64,000 bases of DNA, taken from NCBI GenBank assembly GCA_046581755.1, contig JAYGFR010000103.1, positions 40,526-104,525 on the forward strand, given 5' to 3'. Made by a program: the position numbers and the translations under genes. Below, piece after piece: positions 3,766 through 10,557 of this stretch. Source of the DNA: Nitrospinota bacterium. GTDB lineage: Bacteria; UBA8248. The first letter of the stretch is position 1, and each line of letters opens with the position of its first letter. The notes beneath the pieces are model-generated. The model made no database searches. It was not told the DNA's origin and worked only from the letters and a program-made list of their open reading frames with translations.

Positions 3766-4158
3766 GTGCCCAAAGAGCAAATCGTCCCGGAAACGGTAAA
3801 ACCCGTCGCGGCCTATTCCACCGGATTCAAGGTCTCGGGCGGGAGCCTCATCATGCTCGCGGGCATGGTCTCGGCCGACACCGAGGGCAACACGGTCGGC
3901 GAGGGCGACATCGGCGCCCAGACCCAGAAGGTGTTCGACAATATCCGGGAAACGCTCGAGGCCGCCGGCGCGGGCTTGAAGGACATCATCCGCCTCACGG
4001 TCTACCTGACCGACCGGGCGGACTTTCCGGGCCACATGAAAGTGCGCTCGGGGCTCCTCACCGAGCCCTACCCGGCGAGCACCCTGCTGATCATCAGCGG
4101 CCTCGCCAGGCCCGAGTGGCTTGTCGAGATCGATACCGTCGCCTTCATCGAGGATTAA
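3766..4158 (+). CDS. RidA/YjgF/UK114 family protein
   Basis: AAYSTG, GDIGAQTQKVFDNI, IIRLTVYLTD, PASTLLIISGLARPEWLVEID. Confidence 0.88.
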   Translation: MPKEQIVPETVKPVAAYSTGFKVSGGSLIMLAGMVSADTEGNTVGEGDIGAQTQKVFDNIRETLEAAGAGLKDIIRLTVYLTDRADFPGHMKVRSGLLTEPYPASTLLIISGLARPEWLVEIDTVAFIED

Positions 4159-4167
4159 CCGCAGGCC

Positions 4168-5034
4168 ATGAACGCTCAGAGCCAGGACCGCTCCCCGCGC
4201 GAGGCCCTCGTCATCGTCAAGGGCGCAGGCGATCTCGCCACCGGCATCATTCACCGCCTGTGGCGGAGCGGGTTTCCGGTCATCGCCACCGAGATTGAAA
4301 ACCCCACCATGGTGCGGCGGACGGTCTCTTTCGCCGAGTGTCTCTACGCGGGGCGCCACACCGTCGAAGGCGTGGCGACCGAGCGCGCTGAGGGCGCCAC
4401 GGTGGCCGAGAAACTCGCGTCCGCCAGAAAACTCCTCGATACGGGAACCCTGCCCGTCGTCATCGACCCGGGCGCGGAGATCGTCCCCCTCGCGCGGCCG
4501 GCCGCCCTGGTGGACGCCATCATCGCCAAGCGGAACCTGGGGACCCGGATCGATCAGGCCGAGGCGGTGATCGGAATTGGGCCCGGCTTTACCGCCGGGG
4601 TGGACGCGCACGCCGTCATCGAGACCGCCCGCGGGCACGATATCGGCCGGGTCATCCTCGATGGAGGGGCCGAGCCCAACACGGGCGTTCCGGGCCCGAT
4701 CGGGGGCTACACGGTGGAGCGGCTTTTGCGCGCTCCGGCGGCGGGCGCCTTCGAGCCGCGCACGGCCATCGGCGATGCGGTCCGGGCGGGCGATGTCGTT
4801 GCGGTGGTGGGCGGCGCCGAGGTGAAGGCCGGGATCGACGGGGTTCTCAGGGGGCTTCTCCGCGAGGGAATCGAGGTCACCGAAGGTTTTAAGGTGGGCG
4901 ACGTGGACCCGCGCGCGAAGACCTCGCACTGCCATACGATATCGGATAAATCGCGCGCCATCGGGGGCGGAGCTCTCGAGGCCATCATGATGTTTCTTTT
5001 TGGGGTGGAAACCGCCGCGGAGCAAACGCATTGA
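4168..5034 (+). CDS. yqeB: Selenium-dependent molybdenum hydroxylase system protein, YqeB family
   Basis: IVKGAGDLATG, PTMVRRTVSF, VDAIIAKRNLGT, IGIGPGFTAGVD, ETARGHDIGRVI, PNTGVPG, GVLRGLL, KVGDVDPR, TISDKSRAIGGGALEA. Confidence 0.92.
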   Translation: MNAQSQDRSPREALVIVKGAGDLATGIIHRLWRSGFPVIATEIENPTMVRRTVSFAECLYAGRHTVEGVATERAEGATVAEKLASARKLLDTGTLPVVIDPGAEIVPLARPAALVDAIIAKRNLGTRIDQAEAVIGIGPGFTAGVDAHAVIETARGHDIGRVILDGGAEPNTGVPGPIGGYTVERLLRAPAAGAFEPRTAIGDAVRAGDVVAVVGGAEVKAGIDGVLRGLLREGIEVTEGFKVGDVDPRAKTSHCHTISDKSRAIGGGALEAIMMFLFGVETAAEQTH

Positions 5035-5918
5035 GCATCGAGACCTTTACCGAAGTCGTCGAAAACGGGACCTACCGGATCGGGCGGAGCGTCATTTCGA
5101 TCAACCATGAGAACGAGGACAATCCGTTCGTCCCCGGCCCGCAGTTCTACATTTCCGCCGGGAACTCGCTTGAGCGGATATCCTGGGCGGTCAGCCAGAG
5201 TCTGCCCGTCCTCCTGGTGGGCGAAACCGGGGTGGGCAAAACGCTCTCGATCCGCCATCTGGCCCACATGACCCGGAACGGCTTCCGCCGCGTCAACCTG
5301 AACGGGATGACCACGGTGGACGAGTTCGTCGGCAAGCTCATGATCAACGAAAAGGGCACCTACTGGATCAACGGCATCCTGATCGAGGCGATGGAGGCCG
5401 GCGACTGGCTTCTCATCGACGAGATCAACGCCTGCCTGCCCGAGATCGCCTTTTGTCTCCACAGCCTGCTCGACGACGACCGGATGATCGTCCTCTCGGA
5501 GTACGACGGGCGGATCGTGCGCCCCCACCCGGATTTCCGCCTCTTCGCCAGCATGAACCCGAACGAAAACCGCCGCTACGGCGGAACGAAACCGCTCAAC
5601 GAGGCTCTGCTCGACCGCTTTCCGCTCACCCTGAAGATGGACTACCTCCCCTTCGACGCGGAGGTCGAGGTGACCATGCACCAGAGCGGAAACGAAGACC
5701 GGGCGCTTGTCGAGCGGATGGTCCGGGTGGCGCAGGATGTCCGCGAGGCCATGGAAAACGAGAAAATATTCTCCACCTTCAGCACCCGGAGGCTCATCGA
5801 CTGGGCGCGCATGGCCGCGCAGTTCGATCCGATGGAAGCCGCCACCTCGACCATCTTCAGCAAGGTCAATCCGTTCGATGCGAAGGTGATCGAGGACATC
5901 CTCGACAACCACTTTTAG
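5031..5918 (+). CDS. MoxR-family AAA+ ATPase, CbbQ/NirQ/NorQ/GpvN type
   Basis: Walker A GETGVGKT, Walker B LLIDEIN, HPDFRLFASMNP, YGGTKPLNEALLDRF, C-terminal FSTRRLIDWA. TTG start overlaps the yqeB stop. Confidence 0.9.
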   Translation: MSIETFTEVVENGTYRIGRSVISINHENEDNPFVPGPQFYISAGNSLERISWAVSQSLPVLLVGETGVGKTLSIRHLAHMTRNGFRRVNLNGMTTVDEFVGKLMINEKGTYWINGILIEAMEAGDWLLIDEINACLPEIAFCLHSLLDDDRMIVLSEYDGRIVRPHPDFRLFASMNPNENRRYGGTKPLNEALLDRFPLTLKMDYLPFDAEVEVTMHQSGNEDRALVERMVRVAQDVREAMENEKIFSTFSTRRLIDWARMAAQFDPMEAATSTIFSKVNPFDAKVIEDILDNHF

Positions 5919-5930
5919 GCAGGCCACGGC

Positions 5931-7703
5931 ATGGAACCCCGCCGAAACCGCCTCGAAATCCTGGCCCAGGTCGCCGCGCACGACTACGAACTCGATCTGC
6001 GCTACGGCGACACCGGCCGCCAGGAAAAGAAAACCATCCATATCGAAGACCCGGAGCGCACCCTCGATCGGCTCAGGGGCGAGCTGAGCGATGCGCACGT
6101 CATCCGCTACCAGAAGGGAATGACCCTCATCGAGGTGGCCCACCGCCTGGAGGGGACGCTTCGCTGGGCCCTCCGGGCCGCCCGGGCCAGCCGCGAGCGT
6201 CCGGGCCTGTTTCAAATCTGGCACGCCGTCGAGGATGCACGCTGCGAGAACCGCCTGGCGGCCACGCTTCCGGGGACGCGCAAGAATTTCATCGAGTTCA
6301 TCCGCCCGGCCCTGAAGGAGGCGGAAATTCTCCACGCCCGGGGCGAGCTCTCGCTTTTCTTCCAGGTCCAGTGGGGGCTCTACCTGATCGGGCAGGGAAT
6401 CGAGCCGGGGACGCGCGCGCCGGAGCCCAGCCATTTCGACACCCTCTGGCTGGAGCCCGGTGTCCTCGAATTCTTGGACGAGCTGAGACCCCTCGCCGTG
6501 CGGGCCGGCCAGGCCGATGGCCCGGCCGAGGCGTTCGAGTGCGCCGAGGCGCTCTACGCCGCCATCCGCGAGCGCCTGCCCGAGGAGCTTCTCTCCGAGG
6601 CCCTGCAGGATCTCCCTATCCCCGATATCCCCGAGGAGGTGCTTGAGAGGGCGGAGAATCAAGAAACCGCCGGCGCGGAGGGAGAGATGGAGGAAACCTT
6701 CGCCGCCGACCTGTCGGACACGGACGCCGAAATCGACGAAGAGGCCTTCGAGCTCACCGAGGAGGAGCTTTCCGCGCTCGGCCACTGGGCCAGCCCCTGG
6801 TTCGAGTTCAAGGGCCACTCGAAGGATATCCATCCCTCGGCGGTCCGCTCGGACGAGGGCACGATATTCATCCCGCCCGAGGGGAAATCCGAGGAATACC
6901 AGGCGATCGTCAATAACGCGAGCAGCCAGATCAAGGTGCTCGCCCTGAAACTGATGCAAATCATCCAGGAGCGGCGCTACACCCGCTACAGCGGCTCGTT
7001 CCGCTCCGGAAAACTCAACACCCCCAAGCTGTGGAAGCAGCGCCTCGGGAAATACCACCTCTTCCTCCGCCGCGAGAACCCCGAGCGCCTCGACATCTGC
7101 TTTACCCTGCTGGTGGACGAGAGCGGCAGCATGAACCGCGAGTCGAAATACCTGGCCGCGCGCGAGGCCACCGTCTTCTTCGCCGAGGTGCTCGACCGGG
7201 TGGAGGTCCCCTTCGAGGTCATCGGCTACTCGACCGAAAGCTCCGAGGCGGCGATGGCCGCTTCGCTGGGCCACGTGCCGGCCTTCAAATACCGCCACAT
7301 CCGCCACTCCCCGCTCCAGCACAGAATTTACAAGGGCTTCGACGAGCCGTTTCAAGGCGCCAAGAACCGGCTCGTGAACATCCACCCCCGGTTCAACAAC
7401 TGGGACGAGGAGCACCTTCAGTTCGCATACCGGCGGCTCCTCGGGAGGAGCGAAGCCGAGAAGGTCATCATCATCACCTCGGACGGCCAGCCCAACGGCG
7501 ATGCGAGCCATCTGGTCGAAACGGTCCACCGCCTTGAAAAACTCGGCGTCCGCATCATCGGCGTCGGCGTGGTCGATCCCTTCGTCGAGCAGATTTACCC
7601 CAACTTCATCGTCGTCAAGCATCTCGATCAGCTTGCCGAGGAGCTGGTGGAGATTCTCCGCAGCGAGCTTCTCCGGAGCGGAAGGGGTGGCCGGGCCTCG
7701 TGA
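5931..7703 (+). CDS. VWA-domain protein (CobT/NorD/CbbO-like), partner of the AAA+ ATPase
   Basis: N-terminal EVAH...AVEDARCENRL, acidic linker, RSGKLN, MIDAS LLVDESGSM, FEVIGYST, IITSDGQPN. Confidence 0.88.
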   Translation: MEPRRNRLEILAQVAAHDYELDLRYGDTGRQEKKTIHIEDPERTLDRLRGELSDAHVIRYQKGMTLIEVAHRLEGTLRWALRAARASRERPGLFQIWHAVEDARCENRLAATLPGTRKNFIEFIRPALKEAEILHARGELSLFFQVQWGLYLIGQGIEPGTRAPEPSHFDTLWLEPGVLEFLDELRPLAVRAGQADGPAEAFECAEALYAAIRERLPEELLSEALQDLPIPDIPEEVLERAENQETAGAEGEMEETFAADLSDTDAEIDEEAFELTEEELSALGHWASPWFEFKGHSKDIHPSAVRSDEGTIFIPPEGKSEEYQAIVNNASSQIKVLALKLMQIIQERRYTRYSGSFRSGKLNTPKLWKQRLGKYHLFLRRENPERLDICFTLLVDESGSMNRESKYLAAREATVFFAEVLDRVEVPFEVIGYSTESSEAAMAASLGHVPAFKYRHIRHSPLQHRIYKGFDEPFQGAKNRLVNIHPRFNNWDEEHLQFAYRRLLGRSEAEKVIIITSDGQPNGDASHLVETVHRLEKLGVRIIGVGVVDPFVEQIYPNFIVVKHLDQLAEELVEILRSELLRSGRGGRAS

Positions 7704-8518
7704 GCGCCGGCGCGCTGTCCGGGGCCATCGGGCTCGGGCCCGGCCAGATTCTCGCGGCCGCCGGGGGCGGGGGTAAGACCAGCCTGCTCCGGGCGCTTGG
7801 AGAGGAATGCCACGCCGCCGGGATGCGCCCGGCCATCCTCACCCCCACCACCCACTTTTTCTCCCCCGAGCCGGCCGGGGAGGCCCCCCTTTTCCTGGGA
7901 GAGGTGGAAGCGGTGGACGCCCGCCTCCGCGAATACGGCGGGGAGTGGCCGGGCCCCCTCACGCTGGCCCGGCGGCGGACGGGGGAATCCCCCGTACCGG
8001 GGACGCCGGGCGAGAGGCGGATGAAGATGGGGGGGTATCGCGCCGATGAGATCGAACGCCTCCGCCGGCCGGGCGGTGTCGTCCTCGTGGAGGCGGACGG
8101 CGCGCGCGGGCTTCCGATCAAGGCGCCCGGACCGGACGAGCCGGTGATTCCGCCCGGGGCGGACATCGTCCTCGGGGTGGTGGGTCTGGATGCGCTCGGG
8201 GGGCCGATTGACGAAGCCCATGCCTTCCGCCCGGAAATCCTCTCTTCCCTGACCGGCCTCCCGCTCGGCGCTCCGGTGGATGCCGCGGCCATCGGCTGCC
8301 TCGCCGCCCACCCCGAGGGGCTGTTCCGGGGCGCCCCGAAATCCGCCCGGCGGGTCCTGATATGCAACAAATCCGACCGGATCGGGCGGATGGAAAAACC
8401 GGAGCAAATCGGTTATATTATTGCGGAAATTGCATGTGCCCCGAACGGGCCGGCGGATCTGCTTCTTTTTACAGCATGCCTTCCGTCCGGCCTCCGGGTG
8501 GGGCGGCCGGTTCCATAA
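7700..8518 (+). CDS. yqeC: Selenium cofactor biosynthesis protein, YqeC family
   Basis: AAGGGGKTSLL, ILTPTTH, VLVEADGARGLPIKAPGPDEPVIP, VVGLDALG, HPEGLFRG, ICNKSD. GTG start overlaps the VWA stop. Confidence 0.9.
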   Translation: MSAGALSGAIGLGPGQILAAAGGGGKTSLLRALGEECHAAGMRPAILTPTTHFFSPEPAGEAPLFLGEVEAVDARLREYGGEWPGPLTLARRRTGESPVPGTPGERRMKMGGYRADEIERLRRPGGVVLVEADGARGLPIKAPGPDEPVIPPGADIVLGVVGLDALGGPIDEAHAFRPEILSSLTGLPLGAPVDAAAIGCLAAHPEGLFRGAPKSARRVLICNKSDRIGRMEKPEQIGYIIAEIACAPNGPADLLLFTACLPSGLRVGRPVP

Positions 8519-8586
8519 ACGGTGAAAAATCGACGGACCGATAAATGCGCCGCCGAACGCGGGGGCGAGAAAAGGACCAATCGGAA

Positions 8587-9735
8587 ATGAGCAAAGACGT
8601 TTTTAAGGAAATGTCCGAGTTGAAGGAAAAAGGAACCCGCGGCGCCATCGCCACGGTCGTATCGAGGAAGGGCTCCGCTCCCATGAGCGGGGACGCCAAG
8701 ATGCTCGTCCGCGAGGACGGAAGCACGATGGGAACCGTGGGCGGCGGATGCCTCGAGGCCGAGGTCTGGCAGACGGCGATGAACATCATCGAGGATGGCA
8801 GCCCGGAAAAGGTCTCCTTCGACCTGACCGCCGACGAGGCCGGGGACAGCGGTCACATCTGCGGCGGAACGGTGGAAATCTTCATCGAGCCCTTCGACGC
8901 CTACGATCCCGGCCTCCTCGCCGAGATCCTCGATGTCCGGAACCGTGGCCAAAGCGCCGTTCTGGCCACGGTGGTTCAGGTGGGGAGCGGGAAGGAATCC
9001 TCTCCCGATCAAAGGAAAATGCTAGTGAAGAGGAGCGGGACCATGATTGGCGAAATCCCCGATTTCGCCGCCGAGATATGGCGTGAAAGCGGCCAGATCA
9101 TGCGCCAGGGTCAGCCCTCACTGATGCAGTTTTGGGCCGGGGACGATCGCCCGGGGGCCAAGCGCCGCTCCGCCGGGGATGCGACAGAAATTTTCGTGGA
9201 GCCGATCACGGCCCAGCCGCTGGTCTACCTGTTCGGCGGCGGGCACGTCTCCTACTGCGTGGCGCTGGCCGCCCAGATGGCCGGGTTCCGGATCGCCGTC
9301 GTCGAGGACCGGCCCAGCTTCGCCAACAAGGAACGGTTCCCGATGGCGGAATCGTTCTATGTGGGCGAGCATCCCGCCATTTTCGACGAAATCCCGGTGG
9401 ACGAATCCAACTACCTCACCATCATCACCCGCGGCCATGCAAATGACGAGATCATCCTGGAGTGGGCGCTCAAGACCCCGGCCCGCTACATCGGCATGAT
9501 CGGCTCAAAGAGCAAGGTTCTGCTGACCTACCGCCACCTGCGGGACAAGGGCTTCGACATGGACGAGATCATCCGCCGCGTCCATGCCCCCATCGGTCTC
9601 GACATCGGCGCCGACTCTCCCGGCGAGATAGGAATTTCCATCGCGGCCGAGTTCATCCGCCTCCGGCGCCAGGGGGAGGAAGCCATGCAGGACGCCCTTT
9701 CCAGCAAGAAAATCAACCTTCGGAAAAAATCTTGA
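8587..9735 (+). CDS. xdhC: XdhC/CoxF family molybdenum-cofactor insertion chaperone
   Basis: ATVVSRKGSAP, GTVGGGCLEAEV, ICGGTVEIFIEP, LFGGGHVS, IITRGHAND, YIGMIGSKSK, HAPIGLDIGADSPGEIGISIAAE. Confidence 0.92.
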   Translation: MSKDVFKEMSELKEKGTRGAIATVVSRKGSAPMSGDAKMLVREDGSTMGTVGGGCLEAEVWQTAMNIIEDGSPEKVSFDLTADEAGDSGHICGGTVEIFIEPFDAYDPGLLAEILDVRNRGQSAVLATVVQVGSGKESSPDQRKMLVKRSGTMIGEIPDFAAEIWRESGQIMRQGQPSLMQFWAGDDRPGAKRRSAGDATEIFVEPITAQPLVYLFGGGHVSYCVALAAQMAGFRIAVVEDRPSFANKERFPMAESFYVGEHPAIFDEIPVDESNYLTIITRGHANDEIILEWALKTPARYIGMIGSKSKVLLTYRHLRDKGFDMDEIIRRVHAPIGLDIGADSPGEIGISIAAEFIRLRRQGEEAMQDALSSKKINLRKKS

Positions 9736-9772: not shown

Positions 9773-10557
9773 ATGCAGCGGTTTCTCAATTTATTGTCCG
9801 GCCTCTCCGATATTATTCTCCCGCGCTCGTGCCCCACATGCGGCGGCGCGCTACCCTTCGGGGGCGGCAGAGCCATATGCGAAACTTGCCTGGAGGCGCT
9901 CGAGCGGACCTTGCCCCCCTGGTGCCCCGTATGCGGAAAACCGTTCCGCTCGGAATTCACCCTCTCCTATTCCCCGGACCACCTTTGCGCCGAGTGCCGC
10001 GAATGGCCGCCGGATTTCGATGGGGCCCGCGCCCTGGGCCCCTACGATGGCGCCCTTCGTAATCTGGTTCATCTGATCAAATACCACGGCTACACCTCCC
10101 TTGCCGCCGAGCTGGGGGTAGAACTCAGCCAGCGGGCCCGGCAGGAATTTCCCGGTGCCGCTGATGCGGGAGACGGATTGATAACGTTCGTTCCCATCGC
10201 CCGGAAACCTGGAAAGAGCGCGGCTTCGATCAGGCCCGGCTTCTCGCCCAGAGCACCGCCGGGCGCCTGGGAGTGGCATTCGCGCCCACTCTCGAGAGGA
10301 GAGCCCCCTCGGCCCCCCAGACACGCCTGACGGCCAAGCGGAGGAGAAAAATCCTGCGCGGCGTTTTCTCCTCTCTCAACCCGCCCGCCTCGGAGGGGAA
10401 ACGGGTCATTTTGATCGACGATGTTCTGACAACCGGCTCGACGGCCTCGGCCTGCGCCCGGGAACTCAAAATAGCGGGTGCATTATCCGTAAGTGTCTTG
10501 ACCATTTGTCTTACTGTGATAAAAGGAATTCAGAATTTAATATTTTATTTATGCTGA
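9773..10557 (+). pseudogene. comF: ComF family protein (double zinc ribbon + phosphoribosyltransferase), frameshifted near 10200
   Basis: First frame has CPTC, CETC, CPVC and CAEC up to FVPI. The second frame continues ERGFDQA...PQTRL...VILIDDVLTTGST. One C is missing in atcgcccggaa. Confidence 0.8.

Follow-up and report, generated by a model that had tools for sequence, protein, structure and literature searches.

A MoxR-class AAA+ ATPase and a CobT-like VWA adaptor encoded between yqeB and yqeC in Nitrospinota: a candidate chaperone of xanthine-oxidase-family molybdenum enzymes

We analyzed a 64,000-nucleotide stretch of the genome of a Nitrospinota bacterium (GenBank assembly GCA_046581755.1, contig JAYGFR010000103.1, positions 40,526 to 104,525 of the forward strand; hereafter the window), in which positions 4168 to 9735 carry yqeB, a gene for a MoxR-class AAA+ ATPase, a gene for an adaptor with a von Willebrand factor A (VWA) domain, yqeC and xdhC. 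The operon is real, conserved among relatives of its source and apparently undescribed in print. On balance we favor the view that the ATPase and the VWA protein are a motor/adaptor chaperone for molybdenum (Mo) enzymes of the xanthine-oxidase family. That the assisted step is tied to selenium, including action through YqeB, is a tentative proposal, to which we assign about half of the weight of the chaperone reading, the rest going to general loading of cofactor or sulfur.

Layout and distribution of the operon

The genes under discussion are listed below in window coordinates, the upstream neighbor last.

4168..5034, plus strand: yqeB, 288 amino acids (aa); TIGR03309 at 349 bits against a cut-off of 220
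5031..5918, plus strand: MoxR-class AAA+ ATPase gene, 295 aa, TTG start; AAA_5 at 93 bits, CbbQ_C lid at 38 bits
5931..7703, plus strand: CobT-like VWA adaptor gene, 590 aa; CobT_C at 70.5 bits, VWA at 28.6 bits
7700..8518, plus strand: yqeC, 272 aa, GTG start; TIGR03172 at 143.5 bits against a cut-off of 73
8587..9735, plus strand: xdhC, encoding a chaperone that carries and inserts the Mo cofactor of xanthine-oxidase-family enzymes, 382 aa; XdhC_CoxI (PF02625) and XdhC_C (PF13478) over cut-off; a longer open reading frame (ORF) begins at 8545
3766..4158, plus strand: ridA/Rid-family (L-PSP) gene; PF01042 at 83 bits; start uncertain, the ORF being open from 3649

A preliminary description made from the letters of this DNA had named five co-directional genes with tight junctions. 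Both the layout and the gene identities were borne out, the former by the plus-strand ORFs and their coordinates and the latter by hidden Markov model searches with Pfam and curated TIGR cut-offs. The yqeB stop overlaps the ATPase start as TTGA at 5031-5034, a 12-bp spacer separates the ATPase TAG (5916-5918) from the adaptor ATG (5931), and the adaptor and yqeC overlap as GTGA at 7700-7703. The ridA stop lies 9 bp ahead of yqeB, and by our own count ridA is present in 27 of 43 related loci; the operon probably starts one gene earlier, at ridA.

The same gene order was found across the class of the source genome and its relatives, which we take to be UBA8248. yqeB lay at most 150 nucleotides upstream of the ATPase gene in all 43 genome loci; of the 36 that extend 2.9 kb or more downstream, 31 continued with the VWA gene and yqeC. 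The five exceptions, all from family f4, carried yqeB, the ATPase gene and the VWA gene alone; in one of these genomes, G032, yqeC, xdhC and comF were located about 370 kb away. The arrangement is thus conserved to a greater degree than chance would allow. Among 51 genomes of the class, the adaptor was detected in 47, yqeB in 49 (47 over cut-off), yqeC in 49, Mo hydroxylases in 49, selD in 47, CoxE-type proteins in 50 and cobN in 6. The four genomes without the adaptor were G022 (67% complete), G052 (79% complete; ATPase found), G027 and G028. The last two (95% complete, in 2-6 contigs) were devoid of the ATPase, the VWA protein, yqeB, yqeC, xdhC and any match to MoCoBD_1, and kept selD and a CoxD/CoxE-type pair.

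SelD, YqeB and YqeC together are described as the selenium-cofactor trait (PMC2276186, PMC2432076, PMC11448449). The earlier proposal presupposed selD and Mo hydroxylases in the source genome (G000, 96.5% complete; other G numbers are sampled genomes, C numbers contigs and L numbers metagenome loci), and both are present there: selD scored 335 bits and has an in-frame TGA at the active site, and 15 MoCoBD_1 matches, some of them fragments, exceeded the cut-off. The yqeB of the operon is the sole copy in the genome (one match); by sequence, YqeB has no relative in the PDB. xdhC gave one match each in G000, G007 and G032, and the family f4 genomes (G029-G033) each contain at least 42 Mo-hydroxylase matches. 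Because each of the three genomes tested has one xdhC, G032 with its many hydroxylases among them, the operon likely serves an entire enzyme family rather than a single selenoenzyme. Four hydroxylase orthologue groups (G000 C335, C13, C174/C398 and C300/C61) are kept in four of four small g4 genomes, and none is singled out as the client. Many Mo-hydroxylase large subunits of G000 (on C13, C42, C61, C167, C212 and C300) stand alone, with no genes for flavin adenine dinucleotide (FAD) or iron-sulfur (FeS) subunits beside them, and the five FAD and five FeS subunit matches of this genome, against about a dozen large subunits, suggest that small subunits are shared. A second yqeC paralogue over cut-off (G000:C43:4240-5025; two copies in most family f1 genomes) lies in a conserved operon between iron-alcohol-dehydrogenase-like and M20-peptidase-like genes, named from sequence reading. 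In genus g8 it lies about 8 kb from a hydroxylase gene, but a joint operon was rejected, since unrelated genes on the opposite strand lie between the two and the proximity is missing in G010.

A second lineage of the pair emerged from a metagenome scan. Of 56 loci, 39 contained distant AAA proteins (for example midasin) and were dropped; of the remaining 17, L098 and L099 belong to the own class and L101 is an outgroup; these three were excluded, as was L096, a contig that looks chimeric, its ATPase beginning mid-gene and being fused in frame to an unrelated secreted-protein-like frame. The other 13 are called Chloroflexota-type, their ATPases sharing 64-89% identity with a Chloroflexi protein whose neighboring locus tag is a Mo-hydroxylase large subunit. 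In one Chloroflexi genome, A2Y93_14780 is the large subunit and A2Y93_14790 the ATPase, in agreement with the layout of the contigs, and seven protein-record pairs (motor or adaptor plus large subunit) hint at further such loci. A Mo-hydroxylase medium-subunit gene was located upstream of the pair in 13 of 13 contigs, directly in 12 and with an intervening gene in one. Genes for the FAD, FeS, large and medium subunits stood in a row in four of them, and xdhC followed in the two that reach far enough downstream (L090 and L102). Neither yqeB nor yqeC was found in any of the 13 contigs, each of which covers just 2-20 kb. The preliminary description had allowed that homologues of the pair might usually lie away from yqeB and yqeC; they were found beside yqeB in the own class and beside a Mo hydroxylase in this second lineage.

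In the PDB, the subunits of the Chloroflexota-type enzyme best matched chains A and B of nicotinate dehydrogenase 3hrd (228 and 233 bits; next 181 and 164), which is presumably the nicotinic acid hydroxylase of E. barkeri. That hydroxylase is listed as selenium-dependent (PMC2276186). A split subunit is not proof of selenium, and the subunits of the split enzyme pass no named NCBIfam model. In L102:247-19956 the enzyme lies within a sugar-acid/inositol-type catabolic cluster with IolB-like, DapA-like aldolase, UlaG-like lactonase, aldehyde dehydrogenase and transketolase-like genes, so that it may act on a substrate other than nicotinate. No orthologue of this split enzyme occurs in the own class (best identity 46%; 28-44% in G000), and against the 400-genome sample the proteins of these contigs gave matches of only 41-46%.

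Family membership of the motor and the adaptor

The ATPase contains Walker A (G64-T71), Walker B (D130-E131), sensor 1 (N176), an arginine finger (R196) and sensor 2 (R253), roles that we assigned by analogy with the CobS motifs of bioRxiv 10.64898/2026.07.21.739949. The Walker A, Walker B, DRF and STRR motifs were present in 30 of 30 aligned relatives. [quoted passage not shown] In a comparison of 33 rows, the window ATPase scored 164 and 156 BLAST bits with Burkholderiaceae CobS-like proteins, 118 and 98 with NorQ, 102 with S. meliloti CobS and 31 with CoxD; the CoxD and CoxE references were from a Pseudosulfitobacter cox operon, standing in for the O. carboxidovorans cox plasmid. In the PDB the scores were 97 bits for CobS, 89 for CbbQ and 72 for NorQ. 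A 17-row ATPase tree united five family rows in one clade (support 98/98) and placed CoxD in a separate clade (100/100). The family clade stood beside a phage-like protein (44% identity), loosely among CobS-like rows and far from CoxD, and the free tree kept it apart from NorQ, represented by two rows, with no CbbQ row. This nearest outgroup ATPase is encoded on a phage-like contig (L101:991-2229). Approximately unbiased tests of a union with CoxD (p 0.0498), NorQ (p 0.053) or CobS (p 0.029) were all borderline, the tree having few reference rows. The pair thus appears to form its own MoxR subfamily, of which only the clade itself is firm and the deep position borderline. The ATPase had been described as CbbQ/NorQ-type, which is too narrow, because CobS, CbbQ and NorQ seem about equally distant; the pair groups inside none of CoxD, NorQ or CobS proper.

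The adaptor was modeled with AlphaFold from 29 sequences (mean predicted local distance difference test score 78, predicted template modeling score 0.50). The model consists of a helical N-domain (1-226), an acidic low-confidence linker (229-291; residues 226-290 include 22 D/E against 1 K/R), a long helix (320-351), a low-confidence "shaft" (353-382) and the VWA domain. The predicted MIDAS residues D396, S398, S400, N490 and D518 were invariant in two alignments (29 of 29 and 32 of 32 rows); they are identical in type and nearly equal in spacing to D422, S424, S426, N518 and D546 of CobT, with Asn at the position of Thr in NorD-type sites. By profile comparison (hhalign), CobT was closest (E 6e-23), followed by NorD (3e-7) and CoxE (4e-5), whereas the top Foldseek matches of the model were NorD VWA domains and the midasin MIDAS. 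In the adaptor tree, eight family rows formed one clade (support 97). The suggested CobT/NorD-like affinity can accordingly be narrowed to CobT-like on the strength of the CobT_C domain, the profile, the layout and the predicted MIDAS. In a search of 1.84 billion representatives, nine clusters of near-full length, a 320-aa piece among them, matched the adaptor profile at 474-857 bits, below which scores dropped to about 310. Named members of the pair family come from Nitrospinota/Tectomicrobia, Chloroflexota and one Actinomycetota record, and the nearest ESM Atlas cluster has 148 members, mostly Chloroflexota where known. Peptidase activity of the adaptor was considered and rejected, as just 6 of 29 rows, the window protein not among them, preserve an intact N-domain HExxH; the invariant H71, H98, D102 and R104 may be the remnant of a zinc-peptidase-like site. 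Residue 459, in a highly conserved insert near the MIDAS, is His in the own class and Cys in Chloroflexota-type proteins.

Among known systems, CoxD/CoxE/CoxF of O. carboxidovorans (PMC4240915, PMC3471820) likewise brings together genes for a MoxR AAA+ protein, a VWA protein and an XdhC-family protein and is tied to a xanthine-oxidase-family Mo enzyme; the likeness may extend to ATP-dependent completion of the Mo site, known there and proposed here. The pair described here differs in its MoxR subfamily, in the greater length of its CobT-like adaptor (590 aa, compared with about 400) and in its yqeB and yqeC flanks. The window adaptor has no VWA_CoxE (PF05762) match, whereas cox-operon CoxE and proteins on G000 C356 and C229 do. 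The latter belong to two further, CoxD/CoxE-like pairs, one of them behind FAD and FeS subunit genes, and these separate pairs agree with the earlier view that the window pair is not CoxD/CoxE. Form I carbon monoxide (CO) dehydrogenase was not found in G000 (best 676 against 991 bits). At both G000:C356:11625-15457 and L215:4935-7128, a CoxD/CoxE-like pair comes after genes for FAD and 2Fe-2S subunits, and a large subunit is missing.

The closest characterized adaptor is CobT of the cobaltochelatase CobNST (PDB 9ujv, 9uka), with an N-domain, a disordered linker, a long helix, a shaft and a VWA domain with a D-S-S-N-D MIDAS; its shaft enters the ring and the client lies on the MIDAS side (bioRxiv 10.64898/2026.07.21.739949). 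By contrast, the window proteins fall below both family cut-offs (CobS model TIGR01650, 85 against 559 bits; CobT model TIGR01651, 53 against 759; S. meliloti CobS as control, 651). They are 32% and 25% identical to S. meliloti CobS and CobT and form a separate clade, the 295-aa ATPase is without the extra length of CobS, and the pair does not track cobN. In G000, cobN lies in a cob cluster, adjoining the gene for a 621-aa ChlI/ChlD-type protein, the predicted motor of CobN itself. With NorQ/NorD (PMC9976466) and CbbQ/CbbO, which insert a cofactor or remodel an enzyme through a MIDAS, the pair shares the CbbQ_C lid, a similar ATPase size and the NorD-like VWA fold matches, but identity is about 30% and by profile the adaptor lies nearer to CobT. 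Searches of G000 revealed no RuBisCO and, at E 1e-5, no tblastn match to NorB or NorC. As in described selenium-cofactor clusters, all three markers are present and xdhC lies beside yqeC; the available parts of PMC2276186, PMC2432076 and PMC11448449 mention no AAA+/VWA pair in such clusters, and the present operon contains neither a hydroxylase gene nor selD.

Proposed function and its alternatives

By analogy with these systems, the ATPase probably assembles into a ring-shaped motor for which the VWA protein is the adaptor. This machine would grip a newly made xanthine-oxidase-family enzyme and open it using ATP, after which the XdhC-carried cofactor, or its terminal sulfur or selenium ligand, would be inserted; as in CobST and NorQD, the hexamer pore would take the adaptor shaft and the MIDAS would bind an acidic residue of the client. 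We infer the client class from gene context. In the own lineage, the operon, with the only xdhC and the only yqeB, would be a central finishing station for about a dozen scattered Mo hydroxylases, some of which may take selenium through SelD/YqeB/YqeC, and the client in Chloroflexota would be the split enzyme whose genes immediately precede the pair. The job would resemble that of CoxD/CoxE for CO dehydrogenase, with recruitment from another branch of MoxR.

A chaperone for xanthine-oxidase-family enzymes is favored because two different gene neighborhoods point to one enzyme class, and because in G027 and G028 the pair was lost together with yqeB, yqeC, xdhC and all hydroxylases. Known clients are excluded in G000, given the absence of RuBisCO and NorB/NorC matches, the discrepancy between CobN (6 of 51 genomes) and the adaptor (47 of 51), and the motor that CobN appears to have of its own. 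This reading is further favored by the CoxD precedent, since CoxD is required for ATP-dependent sulfuration of the CO dehydrogenase Mo site (PMC4240915). A bolder version, which we hold possible but doubtful, is an ATP-driven selenium insertase that opens apo-Mo hydroxylases so that YqeB and YqeC place selenophosphate-derived selenium on Mo; it would be the first energy-coupled step put forward for the unexplained labile-selenium cofactor, with a recruitment from the CobS/CobT branch that was independent of CoxD/CoxE, and it would be common to two phyla.

Several observations weigh against these proposals. The functional evidence is gene context throughout. The ATPases of the 43 class loci are 69-88% identical, so that the loci are close kin and not independent, and the co-loss in G027 and G028 is one event, in a reduced genus. 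The two lineages share no client, since the own class lacks an orthologue of the split enzyme. No adaptor was detected in 350 genomes outside the class (E 1e-20) though 29 of these bear yqeB; the pair is therefore not generally needed for the selenium trait, and most organisms mature xanthine-oxidase-family enzymes without it. Xanthine dehydrogenase of R. capsulatus, for instance, is described as needing XdhC and a cysteine desulfurase (PMC10609526). The CoxD precedent is itself qualified: Pelzmann et al. question whether CoxD acts on the apo-enzyme as a chaperone (PMC4240915), and CoxD/CoxE-like pairs can have other clients, because the G027 pair outlasts its neighboring FAD and FeS genes. 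As to selenium, 13 hydroxylase proteins of G000 were scanned and not one passes a named NCBIfam or selenium-dependent model (best Se_dep_XDH, 445 against 830), although selenium content is not readable from sequence. Thus, of the earlier suggestion that ATP serves to open an apo-hydroxylase for insertion of selenium or a selenium-bearing Mo cofactor, the link to Mo hydroxylases stands, whereas a selenium-specific step is not established, considering the second lineage with no yqeB or yqeC in view, the 29 outside yqeB genomes without the pair, and the selenium-dependent models that were not passed.

Of the alternatives, the one that survives best, although we judge it improbable, is that the pair acts on the maturation proteins, remodeling or recycling YqeB or the XdhC-cofactor complex to release finished cofactor. 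This would explain why yqeB-ATPase-VWA is the unit never broken in the class, persisting alone in family f4 with yqeC-xdhC far off in G032, and why the operon contains no hydroxylase gene. It fits poorly with the 13 Chloroflexota-type contigs, where the enzyme is the neighbor and yqeB and yqeC are not within view, and with the 29 of 350 outside genomes in which yqeB works without the pair. Ranked next, and likewise improbable, is an unrelated client, the pair being an inherited passenger of its neighborhood. Kin share gene order, the class also retains unrelated neighbors such as comF and an acyl-CoA dehydrogenase gene, and more distant CobS/CobT-like pairs (35-44% identity) occur in unrelated settings, namely Burkholderiaceae plasmids and a phage-like contig. 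A passenger would not, however, be expected to show stop/start overlaps on both sides, orthologues behind a Mo hydroxylase in a second phylum, and loss along with all Mo-hydroxylase genes.

We give very little credence to the pair being the cobaltochelatase motor CobS/CobT acting on CobN in vitamin B12 synthesis: the best single-domain PDB matches are CobS and CobT, the MIDAS is CobT-type, G000 has cobN and some database records name relatives CobS, but the family scores and the distribution of cobN largely refute it. Equally remote is an ordinary CoxD/CoxE/CoxF cluster, for although the grouping of AAA+, VWA and XdhC genes resembles that of cox operons, the sequence scores, the true CoxD/E-like pairs elsewhere in G000 and the separate clades in both trees refute membership and leave a functional likeness.

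Under the chaperone reading, xanthine-oxidase-family enzymes would have a second motor/adaptor pair, recruited independently of the first. If only sulfurated cofactor is loaded, the case would be one of convergence with CoxD/CoxE, whose own action is debated (PMC4240915). If selenium is loaded, a long-standing question would be opened, the route of labile selenium to the Mo of these enzymes being stated to be unknown in 2024 (PMC11448449); the narrow range of the pair limits the generality of any answer. The Chloroflexota loci offer enzyme and motor in one compact, expressible cassette, and the analysis corrects a likely misannotation of these genes as cobaltochelatase. The preliminary description took the arrangement to be possibly undescribed, and in full-text searches of the open-access literature, main texts only, none of the papers listed connects yqeB with an AAA+/VWA pair. 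The available main text of PMC2432076, PMC5322559 and PMC9312934 does not contain MoxR or von Willebrand, although supplementary neighbor tables could mention such a pair, and the available part of PMC13653126 does not contain YqeB, CoxD or AAA. No experimentally tested member of the pair subfamily was found.

Minor features of the region

Pieces of contigs (151-602 nucleotides) from three metatranscriptomes were together near-identical to all five genes; DNA carry-over is possible, and they are no evidence of expression or co-transcription. A promoter scan of the region found 4 sites against 1.1 expected. A weak sigma-70-like site at 8391-8419, in the AT-rich 3′ end of yqeC, is a possible internal xdhC promoter, on which we do not rely. 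Downstream of xdhC, a comF-like gene at 9773-10557 is split over two frames, with a zinc ribbon at 9773-10330 and a phosphoribosyltransferase end at 10273-10557. In one contig of run X1 a base is added near 10208, so that either an assembly error or strain variation may account for the break.

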